A DNA stretch of 64,000 nucleotides from Escherichia phage ManiMatter_Bas94, in sequence record PQ850617.1. One strand, given 5' to 3'. The notes beneath the pieces were generated by a model that was not told the DNA's origin, searched no databases, and saw nothing but the letters and a program-made list of their open reading frames with translations. The position numbers and the translations under genes are program-made. This document shows positions 44,198 through 46,307 of the stretch, piece after piece; position 1 is the first letter of the stretch, and each line of letters begins with the position of its first letter.

Positions 44198-46228
44198 TTA
44201 ACCTCTATTCAATGAACATTTAGGAGAATTACAATAAACTTGATTCATAGAACCAAGCGTACAACTTTCAGCATCGCGCCACGGAATCTGCTTAAAACAC
44301 CCTGAGCAGTAGCCGAGGGTTGACCACATTGCTTTGGTGAAGTCAGTGCTTCGGTTTCCGTCGAAGCTGACAACAGTTTTGCGGAGAGCTGTTCGTGATT
44401 CAGGAAACACACCTGCTTTCTCAGCAGGTTCCTCCTTTTTTGGCTTAGTTGAGATTGCAAAAATACTGTTGCTACGTTTCTCAACATAAGCATCAACAAC
44501 ATCCTCCAGAGTAATGCCTGTCTGTTTCGCTGAGGAAGGTAATACAGTCATACGACCAATCATATCTTCAGTTACACGTAAAGCAAATTCAGGACGACGG
44601 GCGTTTGTTGTATCTGTTGCTTTAATCCAGACATAACCATCTTTGATCGTAGCATTAGATACTTTCTTCTTTATATCTACAGCGCAGACTTTACAGATAT
44701 CTTCACCACGAAGACGACTGAGTTCATCATCAAACTCGTTCTCTGTTTTAACTTCACCACAGATTTCACAAACACCAATAGGAGTTTCCTCCTCTTCTTC
44801 ATCTTTAGGCTTAGTCAAACCTTCCAGACATTCAGGGTGCCAGTAGCATTGATATGCGAAGACTGCTTTAGGTGCATCCTTCCAATCAATGTGTTTATCA
44901 CAACCGCCACAATCACCATGAGAATGTGCTTCCCAGAATTTACGAGTGATAGTAACGCCATTCTTGTTGACGAAACTATCATTCATATCAAAAGGGATAT
45001 CATCATCAAAGTCAGCAGTAGTTGACTCAGGCTCCTTTTTCTCCAGAGATGGGTCAACAAAACGACCTGCTGTGATCACTAAACGAACCATAGCATTAAC
45101 TTCGGAGATACAGGATACTGTCCCACGGTAAACAATTTTAGGGTCTTTCAGGGCATCCTGATAAGCCTTAATGTCTACGTTATGAACATCACCTTCGATA
45201 TACTCTTGAGATTTCTCATCGTAGATATAACCAATCATCTTACCACGAGAAGGAACAGCACCAGCAGTTGCATAAGGGACAAACTCATGTGGTGTGATCT
45301 CCACAGTCATGTCGCGGCGAATGTCAATGTTTCGATCGCTTGCGATTTTGTTTTGACTTACCACTGCGTTTCTTCGACGAACGTCTGCCGCTGTCACTCC
45401 CGGCTTCGTGTCGTAAGGATTGCTTGTACTGCTTTTTGAGGAACTTTGATAGTTGCTTTGGCTGTAGTTGTTCGAGTAGTAATTGCCCCAACGATTGATT
45501 ACCGTAAAAACCGGAAGCTCGTGGGCGACCTCTTCAACTAGAGTCATGCTGTTGTTTGACACATCAAAGATGTATTCTGTACCAACTTTACATTCAAAGT
45601 GCTCATCAATGCGATTCTTGTGAGACCTAGAACGCTTCAGAATCCACATCAACATATCTTCTTCAGAAGCACCAAACCAATCTCTGTTACAACGTGCAAG
45701 ATGGAAAGGACGCTCTTCATTACGGATGATATGAAGACGATTATCAGAAGCATCATGCCAGATTAAGGTGAAAGCACCATCCAGCTTTTGAATAGTCTCT
45801 GCTGCACCAATAGTGTTAATAGAGTGGCAGATGTTTTCACTGTCTACCTCGAAGTTTTTACTGTCAGGTAACAGGTCTTGGTTCATCAAGGTTCCGTTAT
45901 GAACCAGAGTGATGTTACCGTGTTGGAAAGGATGGGCGTTCTTGGCGTTAACTGCACCTTTCGTTGCATGACGGCTGTGACCAACAATCCATGAAGGTGC
46001 TACAGTGTAAGCTGTTTCACCAGTGGTGTGCTTCTTGTACTCATCTTGAAGGATGAATGCGAAAGAAGGAAGTGCCTCTTTATAAGTGAAGACTTCTTTA
46101 GTGCTTTTACGCTGACCAAAGATACCAGAGGAGTGCTGTCCTCGGAATACTCCAGCATAAAAGAGTTGGTTAAATATATCTAAATCAGTGCTTGACAGAT
46201 TACCGCCAGCTAATACGATGCCACAAAT
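44198..46228 (-). CDS. Class-II glutamine amidotransferase (Ntn) domain fused to Cys-rich zinc-ribbon C-terminal domain
   Basis: Frame open upstream of track ORF; CGIVLAGGN...VFRGQHSSGIFG...VGHSRHATKG...HPFQHGNITLVHNGTL parallels PurF/GlmS N-termini; no ATG before Cys codon. Confidence 0.6.
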   Translation of the reverse strand: MCGIVLAGGNLSSTDLDIFNQLFYAGVFRGQHSSGIFGQRKSTKEVFTYKEALPSFAFILQDEYKKHTTGETAYTVAPSWIVGHSRHATKGAVNAKNAHPFQHGNITLVHNGTLMNQDLLPDSKNFEVDSENICHSINTIGAAETIQKLDGAFTLIWHDASDNRLHIIRNEERPFHLARCNRDWFGASEEDMLMWILKRSRSHKNRIDEHFECKVGTEYIFDVSNNSMTLVEEVAHELPVFTVINRWGNYYSNNYSQSNYQSSSKSSTSNPYDTKPGVTAADVRRRNAVVSQNKIASDRNIDIRRDMTVEITPHEFVPYATAGAVPSRGKMIGYIYDEKSQEYIEGDVHNVDIKAYQDALKDPKIVYRGTVSCISEVNAMVRLVITAGRFVDPSLEKKEPESTTADFDDDIPFDMNDSFVNKNGVTITRKFWEAHSHGDCGGCDKHIDWKDAPKAVFAYQCYWHPECLEGLTKPKDEEEEETPIGVCEICGEVKTENEFDDELSRLRGEDICKVCAVDIKKKVSNATIKDGYVWIKATDTTNARRPEFALRVTEDMIGRMTVLPSSAKQTGITLEDVVDAYVEKRSNSIFAISTKPKKEEPAEKAGVFPESRTALRKTVVSFDGNRSTDFTKAMWSTLGYCSGCFKQIPWRDAESCTLGSMNQVYCNSPKCSLNRG

Positions 46229-46307
46229 TTTCTAATCCACCTGAAGGGTAAACCCTTTCATCTAATTAACCTTTAAATTGTGCCCCTTCGTCAGAGGCAC
46301 CCATTGA

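Follow-up and report, generated by a model that had tools for sequence, protein, structure and literature searches.

The 64,000-nt stretch of Escherichia phage ManiMatter_Bas94 analysed here (the window; sequence record PQ850617.1) carries a gene predicted to encode a class-II glutamine amidotransferase (GAT), in which the codon of the catalytic cysteine is preceded by ATT instead of a canonical initiation codon. Coordinates refer to the window and to its minus strand unless stated otherwise. The Shine–Dalgarno (SD) sequence AGGTGG is followed by 8 nt (ATTAGAAA), the ATT and the TGT codon of the cysteine; the arrangement GGTGGA, 7 nt, ATT has the same geometry as the GGAGGA plus 7 nt found in other leaders with an ATT or ATC codon at this position (AUY leaders; Y, pyrimidine). 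An in-frame TAG (46234-46232) is separated from the Cys codon only by AAA and ATT, which leaves ATT as the sole plausible initiation codon short of recoding. In this minus-strand frame there is no ATG, GTG or TTG between the TAG and codon 114 (113 codons without a canonical start), and the frame starting with ATT is open to the stop at 44198 (676 codons, 76.1 kDa). The initial annotation had described the ATT directly before the Cys codon, the TAG two codons upstream, the lack of a canonical start and the strong SD 8 nt upstream of the ATT, and all these positions were confirmed.

From 5′ to 3′ the region comprises the TAA of the amidoligase gene (46310-46308), an 8-bp hairpin, the segment TTTAAAGGTTAATTAG and a short upstream open reading frame (uORF), which begins at ATG 46261-46259, is closed by the TAG mentioned above and was absent from the initial annotation. 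From the uORF onward the sequence reads ATG AAA GGG TTT ACC CTT CAG GTG GAT TAG AAA ATT TGT GGC ATC GTA. The features are listed in Table 1.

Table 1. Features at the start region of the GAT gene and the evidence for each
Feature	Position	Strand	Evidence
Predicted class-II N-terminal nucleophile (Ntn) GAT coding sequence from ATT, 676 codons plus stop	44198..46228	-	Translation, Pfam, GlmS and PPAT alignments, extent of phi32_83 and LAMP gp83
ATT, probable initiation codon, presumably decoded as fMet	46226..46228	-	Equals ATG position of distant orthologs; ~98 records; sole in-frame candidate
TGT, predicted catalytic N-terminal Cys nucleophile	46223..46225	-	Invariant CGIV; aligned with GlmS N-terminus
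Shine–Dalgarno sequence AGGTGG, 8 nt 5′ of ATT	46237..46242	-	Sequence; comparison with AUY leaders
Hairpin AAGGG-TTTA-CCCTT adjoining the SD; 3′ end 15 nt before AUU	46244..46257	-	AUY-leader comparison, covariance model
uORF MKGFTLQVD*, 9 codons, in frame, includes hairpin and SD, ends 3 nt before ATT	46232..46261	-	Translation
56-nt invariant island, -48 to +7 around ATT	46221..46276	-	Alignment of ten Gordonclarkvirinae genomes
TTG 45889-45887 and ATG 45886-45884, downstream start of many annotations	45884..45889	-	Open reading frame list, sister records
Intergenic 8-bp hairpin 3′ of the amidoligase stop; possible terminator or processing hairpin	46280..46300	-	Fold, compensatory changes in Suseptimavirus

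The frame is open for 675 codons from the Cys codon and begins with CGIVLAGG, the canonical N-terminus of class-II GATs. The Pfam families GATase_6 (56.7 bits; cutoff 27) and GATase_7 (30 bits; cutoff 25) matched at residues 75-192. In phmmer searches against the PDB, FRGQHSSG aligned with HRGQESAG of human PPAT, and VHNGTL...EVDSEN with VHNGII...ETDTEV of E. coli GlmS; the CGIV motif is invariant in the homolog protein alignment (A3). The GlmS and PPAT alignments indicate that the protein has Cys1, the Arg-Gly motif, the Asn-Gly oxyanion hole and the Asp, and the Cys is the first residue after the initiator, as in other class-II enzymes, though the start codon is non-canonical. Judged from these similarities, the gene product is a class-II (Ntn) glutamine amidotransferase, the ortholog of phiEco32 gp83. 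With GlmS, PurF and AsnB it shares the N-terminal Cys after the initiator, CGIV, the RG motif, the HNG oxyanion hole and the Asp. It differs from these cellular enzymes, which start at ATG or carry a propeptide, also in that a 450-residue C-terminal extension without a Pfam match replaces the synthase domain. The GAT domain spans approximately residues 2-230 and is followed by the long extension with several CxxC motifs. This part (residues ~230-676; 44198-45540), which had no Pfam match, includes an acidic linker of low complexity and three or more zinc-ribbon-like CxxC...CxxC motifs (HGDCGGCDK...WHPEC; GVCEICGE...CKVCA; GYCSGCFK...YCNSPKC).

Escherichia phage LAMP matches the region at 99.8% identity, and phiEco32, NJ01, SU10 and other phages (Kuravirus, Gordonclarkvirinae) match it at 94-96%. 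An 80-nt segment surrounding the start recurs with 100% identity in 68 phage records, and with 95-99% identity in a further 28; the ATT is fixed in all Gordonclarkvirinae (~98 records), and seven metagenome contigs carry it as well. At the equivalent position, orthologs with 50-69% protein identity read ATG-TGT (Proteus J3S, Cronobacter 009 and A24, Vibrio Vp_R1, Salmonella 7-11, Aeromonas LAh_9), as does the metagenomic sister group L109-L113 (62-69% identical), thus the ATT holds the ancestral start position. The ATG of these orthologs would also fit a sequencing or assembly error at the ATT, the interpretation that the initial annotation had reserved for the case of orthologs with ATG. We reject this explanation, because the identical ATT stands in the ~98 independently sequenced phage records and in the seven metagenome contigs; ATG is found only in the distant orthologs.

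Between codons 2 and 114, comparison of Kuravirus with Suseptimavirus or Nieuwekanaalvirus gave dS values (synonymous substitutions per site) of 1.3-3.1 and ratios of non-synonymous to synonymous substitution (dN/dS) of 0.06-0.12. Such low ratios at saturated synonymous divergence indicate that these codons are translated and constrained. They bear directly on the start favoured by many annotations, the TTG/ATG pair located immediately 3′ of HNGTL. The initial annotation had placed the annotated ATG at 45889, which is the first position of the TTG, the start chosen in the open reading frame list; the ATG lies three nucleotides downstream, and the statement that a start there deletes the Cys1 region is correct. 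Initiation at this pair would remove 113-114 residues; of the motifs named above the product would retain the Asp alone, having lost Cys1 as well as the RG and HNG oxyanion motifs. If translation began there, the gene would yield a 562-aa protein without glutaminase activity and the 113 upstream codons would be a dead remnant. It is the default outcome of gene callers, it is so annotated in Paul and NJ01, and a similar 63.8 kDa model exists for SU10. We give it almost no credence: the supposedly dead codons are under the purifying selection described above, their frame is intact in ~98 genomes, the Cys1, RG and HNG motifs are conserved, and annotators chose differing downstream codons (11, 51 and 114), which shows these choices to be software artefacts. 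EK010 and SU7 records start the gene at an ATG at codon 11, the KBNP1711 record at a GTG at codon 47, Paul and NJ01 at codon 114, and the records of Aeromonas phage BUCT695, Pseudomonas phage FBPa8 and Klebsiella phage Klyazma also use downstream starts.

The initial annotation had concluded that either AUU serves for initiation or the enzyme is inactive. The ATG position of the orthologs, the fixed ATT, the dN/dS values and the conserved motifs favour AUU. The site has the attributes of an infC-type start: no canonical in-frame start, an SD at functional spacing, and a codon that is conserved and equivalent to ATG. On this comparative evidence we consider it very probable that translation of the GAT gene starts at the AUU.

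The AUU start of the phiEco32-type gene is already in public annotation, and the start alone is not new. GenBank coding sequences of 676-677 aa begin at the ATT in phiEco32 (phi32_83), LAMP (gp83), Bas86 and Bas88; phi32_83 (EU330206) and LAMP gp83 (MG673519) are the same gene with the same ATT start and 676 aa, whereas most sister records are shortened. Most of the records listed as matching the 80-nt leader have no feature over the first GAT codons. Most deposited genomes thus mis-annotate the GAT as an N-terminally shortened protein without the catalytic Cys, and gene callers that ignore ATT and ATC will go on shortening it. In the KBNP1711 record (locus L015, 1873-2973) the product names are shifted: the amidoligase is called 'L-glutamine-D-fructose-6-phosphate aminotransferase-like protein' and the shortened GAT 'hypothetical protein'. 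The protein is made during infection, since SU10 gp85 was detected in infected cells with nine peptides as an early product (PMC4281155).

Homologs were collected from IMG/VR, JGI metagenomes and GenBank phages, and ~110 unique leaders were sampled of the ~330 phage homologs. The codon before the Cys was ATG in 57 IMG/VR loci (58 with L043, which has ATG-TGC-TGT), ATT in 10, TTG in three and ATC in one; the metagenome loci had ATG (59), ATT (12), ATC (2) and GTG (1). ATT or ATC was present in 7 of the 53 clusters formed at 60% protein identity, and AUY lineages occupy about 12 separate places on the neighbour-joining tree. Among cultured phages FBPa8 has ATT and Klyazma ATC; both are annotated in shortened form. 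Apart from one locus with a canonical in-frame start seven codons upstream, no such codon occurs in any AUY lineage in the interval from the preceding stop to the Cys codon. Entry by frameshifting from another frame was discarded as well: at locus L023 the other two upstream frames contain stops and no ATG leads in.

Close relatives differ in this codon. L087 (ATT) is 96.7% identical in protein sequence to L078, L079 and L081, which have ATG, and in another near-identical pair L164 has ATT and L053 has ATC. From these comparisons ATG, ATT and ATC interchange before the Cys, as is expected of start codons. L087 has no upstream hairpin; its SD AGGA lies in the loop of a 4-bp hairpin (AGGU-AGGA-ACCU) ending 3 nt before the AUU, and the leaders of L078, L079 and L081 differ from its leader. 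L087 looks like a recent switch of start codon.

The AUY leaders have a common architecture. In 23 of 23 distinct AUY leaders there is a hairpin (stem of 5-7 bp, loop of 3-5 nt) whose 3′ end lies 12-15 nt before the AUY; 0-2 nt separate it from the SD, usually GGAGGAUA. In the window the hairpin AAGGG-UUUA-CCCUU is followed by a C and then by AGGUGG. Among the 23 leaders there are 20 different stems, with four to five pair types per stem position, almost all Watson–Crick, so conservation extends to the structure but not to the sequence. When the upstream 21 nt were shuffled (500 shuffles), a mean of 3.3 of the 23 leaders had a hairpin (maximum 8). The hairpin occurs in 14 of 16 AUY as against 8 of 92 ATG unique leaders (Fisher 2e-10, kinship ignored), and the SDs of AUY leaders are stronger than those of ATG leaders (median -8.6 vs -6.3 kcal/mol, p = 0.004).

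The pattern GGAGGATA-N5-ATY-TGYGG..T.GT had 14 matches in IMG/VR, of which 12 were true GAT starts, all 12 with the hairpin; the ATG version of the pattern had no match in IMG/VR. A scan of bacterial genomes (596 Gb) for the ATY pattern gave 15 matches, two of them with a hairpin. Fourteen of the 15 were chance matches inside unrelated ORFs, thus the combination of hairpin, SD and AUY seems to be restricted to phages. The remaining match was a glmS gene with ATT before the Cys codon in the Hyphomicrobiales metagenome-assembled genome JAPLOW010000103.1 (L204, 2093-2119). GGAGGA lies 7 nt upstream of this ATT, and no in-frame canonical start is closer than 23 codons upstream; going by its sequence, this may be a cellular AUU-started Ntn amidotransferase.

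A covariance model (R1) was built from seven leaders, with the Gordonclarkvirinae left out. On the 64-kb window it gave a single match below E = 1, located at 46217-46262 on the minus strand (17.8 bits, E = 0.016). At low scores R1 also matches AT-rich ATG leaders, being dominated by its sequence part and not specific for AUY. Rfam 15 had no family match in the window leader (best noise astro_FSE, 16 bits vs a gathering score of 70), nor in six other AUY leaders. A small stable hairpin directly 5′ of the SD is also characteristic of ompA-type mRNA stabilisers and of structured standby sites; the GAT hairpin differs from these in being tied to AUY starts in one gene family. Its function could be to position the SD helix or stack on it, to shield the SD from pairing with upstream sequence, to protect a poorly translated mRNA as a 5′-proximal stem-loop, or to reduce initiation still further. 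It may tune 30S binding or mRNA stability, in either direction.

Ten Gordonclarkvirinae genomes were aligned over 1.4 kb. Of the alignment columns 57% are invariant, and the only invariant run of at least 15 nt is the 56-nt island around the ATT. Its 5′ third (TAAAGGTTAATTAGATGA) is likewise without variation, and the first substitution on its 3′ side is synonymous (GGC/GGT, codon 3). In a minimum free energy fold GGUUAAU and GAUG are predicted to pair with codons 3-7, and no variation bearing on this pairing was present. BUCT695 belongs to the Grimontviridae, and its GAT is 55% identical to that of the window and groups on the neighbour-joining tree with that of the ATG-started Cronobacter phage A24. 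Its leader from -36 to +14 is nevertheless identical at 48 of 50 positions (96%), while the flanking 100-nt blocks are 38-54% identical, roughly the background level. The identity of the leader could stem from transfer of a 50-nt cassette or from extreme purifying selection. One of the two changes turns TTT into TTA in the hairpin loop, the other GTG into GCG within the SD; both are non-synonymous in the uORF. Since there is no synonymous change beside them, the constraint on the leader acts on nucleotides and not on a peptide. An alternative minimum free energy hairpin that would sequester the SD (GGUUUACC/GGUGGAUU) is disfavoured, because the two substitutions of BUCT695 break it; the AAGGG/CCCUU hairpin is kept.

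Several points weigh against the reading of AUU initiation within such a leader. The SD of BUCT695 (AGGCGG) is weaker. The association between hairpin and AUY was computed without regard to phylogeny, and many AUY leaders share GGAGGAUA, some of them possibly by common ancestry. A hairpin adjoining the SD may lower rather than raise initiation, as work on standby-site biophysics suggests (PMC3936740). The SU10 proteomic data were searched against the shortened 63.8 kDa model and have no bearing on the N-terminus (PMC4281155). Finally, the in-frame uORF, which has a plausible SD, spans the main SD as well as the hairpin and terminates 3 nt short of the AUU.

The last point raises the possibility of translational coupling, in which the AUU would be used mainly by ribosomes reinitiating after the 9-codon uORF, and the SD of the uORF (AAAGG, 8 nt upstream of its AUG) would control GAT output. 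The invariant island extends in the 5′ direction over the SD and AUG of the uORF, and BUCT695 keeps the uORF as MKGLTLQAD*. In BUCT695, however, no SD is recognisable before the uORF AUG. The uORF occurs only in the Gordonclarkvirinae and BUCT695 and is not kept wherever AUY is used: L136, FBPa8, Klyazma and L187-L200 lack it, and L136, FBPa8, Klyazma and L188-L200 have the same geometry of hairpin, SD and AUY. The string TAGATGAAAGG is also present in Cronobacter phage A24, where its ATG lies in another frame and AAAGGA serves the ATG-started gene as SD; the uORF AUG may be an inherited leader remnant. Coupling is in our judgement unlikely.

Because the uORF is in frame with the GAT gene, translation could also start at the uORF AUG, read through the UAG and produce a 12-residue propeptide; Cys1 would then become exposed by self-cleavage, as in B. 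subtilis PurF. Some Ntn amidotransferases are known to carry propeptides. ARAGORN found no tRNA gene in the 64-kb window, which rules out a suppressor tRNA encoded there. The 12 codons show no synonymous change between lineages whose coding dS exceeds 1, and the only two changes, those of BUCT695, alter the peptide. Other AUY lineages have no in-frame upstream AUG, and the ATT stands exactly at the ATG position of the orthologs. This makes readthrough very improbable, and initiation at the AUU remains the preferred reading.

The genes next to the GAT gene encode, according to Pfam, an Amidoligase_2 protein, a phiEco32-type COOH-NH2 ligase and an ATP-grasp enzyme. We take this set to be the amidoligase cluster of phiEco32-like phages, reportedly described by Iyer and colleagues in 2009. 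In Suseptimavirus Bas86 (L006, 1-848) the COOH-NH2 ligase coding sequence is annotated as a join of two pieces around an HNH endonuclease gene, and SU7 (L016, 1-431) has an HNH endonuclease at the equivalent place, which suggests that the ligase gene harbours a mobile intron or has received a homing endonuclease. The copy of the ligase gene in the window (48035-48841) is uninterrupted.

The G+C-rich 8-bp hairpin directly after the amidoligase stop has compensatory changes in its stem (GUGCCUCU/AGGGGCAC in Kuravirus vs GCGCUCU/AGGGCGC in Suseptimavirus). The WFI101126 record annotates a 'terminator' at the equivalent place; a simple terminator scan did not call the window hairpin, which has no U run. 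The leader in the window contains no sigma-70-like site on the minus strand. The 19-mer TTTAAAGGTTAATTAGATG, considered as a repeated promoter motif, occurs once in the window, even with three mismatches allowed. For phiEco32 the promoter element tAATGTAtA of the sigma factor phi32_gp36 has been reported (PMC8948821), and no match to this consensus was found in the window leader. In loci L008-L012, L028, L029 and L113 a TT(T)AAATGTAAA motif lies ~20-30 nt upstream of the GAT ATG, just 5′ of the SD. The motif is common to Grimontviridae and sister contigs and resembles tAATGTAtA (PMC8948821); at its place the window has TTTAAAGGTTAAT. An element of this type may be a promoter or a promoter relic.

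In bacteria the initiator tRNA inserts formylmethionine (fMet) at AUU, and we infer that the AUU of the GAT gene is decoded in this way. In the proposed sequence of events the 30S subunit would bind the SD AGGUGG and initiate at the AUU with fMet-tRNA. Deformylase and methionine aminopeptidase would then expose Cys1, the Ntn nucleophile hydrolysing glutamine, and the predicted N-terminal peptide of the mature protein is CGIVLAGGNLSSTDLDIFNQLFYAGVFR. The ammonia would presumably be passed to the neighbouring amidoligase, ATP-grasp and COOH-NH2 ligase enzymes.

The weak codon looks like part of a conserved module made up of the hairpin, a strong SD, a 7-8 nt spacer, AUY and UGY. The element was found in the Gordonclarkvirinae, the Grimontviridae (BUCT695), the Zobellviridae (FBPa8 and Klyazma) and many uncultivated phages, and it appears to have arisen or spread in many phage lineages carrying the GAT gene. 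Because the rest of the initiation region around the weak codon is optimised and structured, an output that is set or conditional explains this codon better than drift does, and the module would keep GAT output low or make it dependent on conditions.

To our knowledge bacteria and phages very seldom use natural AUU or AUC starts. The few that have been studied, infC foremost among them, serve as paradigms of regulation, and we know of no described feature of infC in which a hairpin adjoins the SD. The GAT gene belongs to an unrelated gene family, and it differs from infC also in that AUY is coupled to a covarying hairpin adjoining a near-perfect SD. What it shares with E. coli infC, which encodes initiation factor 3 (IF3), and with pcnB, both starting at AUU, is a naturally conserved AUU/AUC start with a regulatory use, presumed in the GAT gene (PMC5499595). 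In infC the AUU/AUC codon is the target of discrimination by IF3; mRNAs with AUU compete poorly with AUG mRNAs in vitro, and nutrient limitation and guanosine tetraphosphate (ppGpp) preferentially depress non-AUG starts (PMC5499595). By analogy, it is a reasonable reading that GAT synthesis tracks the translational or nutritional state of the host.

The recurrence of AUY in the phage GAT family and its coupling to a covarying hairpin and a strong SD appear to be undescribed. Taken together, the combination of hairpin, SD, N7-8, AUY and UGY could constitute an undescribed cis-regulatory initiation element specific to phage class-II amidotransferase genes, acquired repeatedly or moved as a ~50-nt cassette. 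The hairpin would be required for AUY initiation, and the element would make synthesis dependent on IF3 and ppGpp rather than simply keep it low. We advance this composite view tentatively, as possible rather than probable. One gene family with AUY in about 12 lineages, almost always with a hairpin and a strong SD, offers a compact natural test system, which bears on how ribosomes choose weak starts, on what upstream structure contributes to this choice, and on why a phage might throttle or condition the hydrolysis of glutamine.

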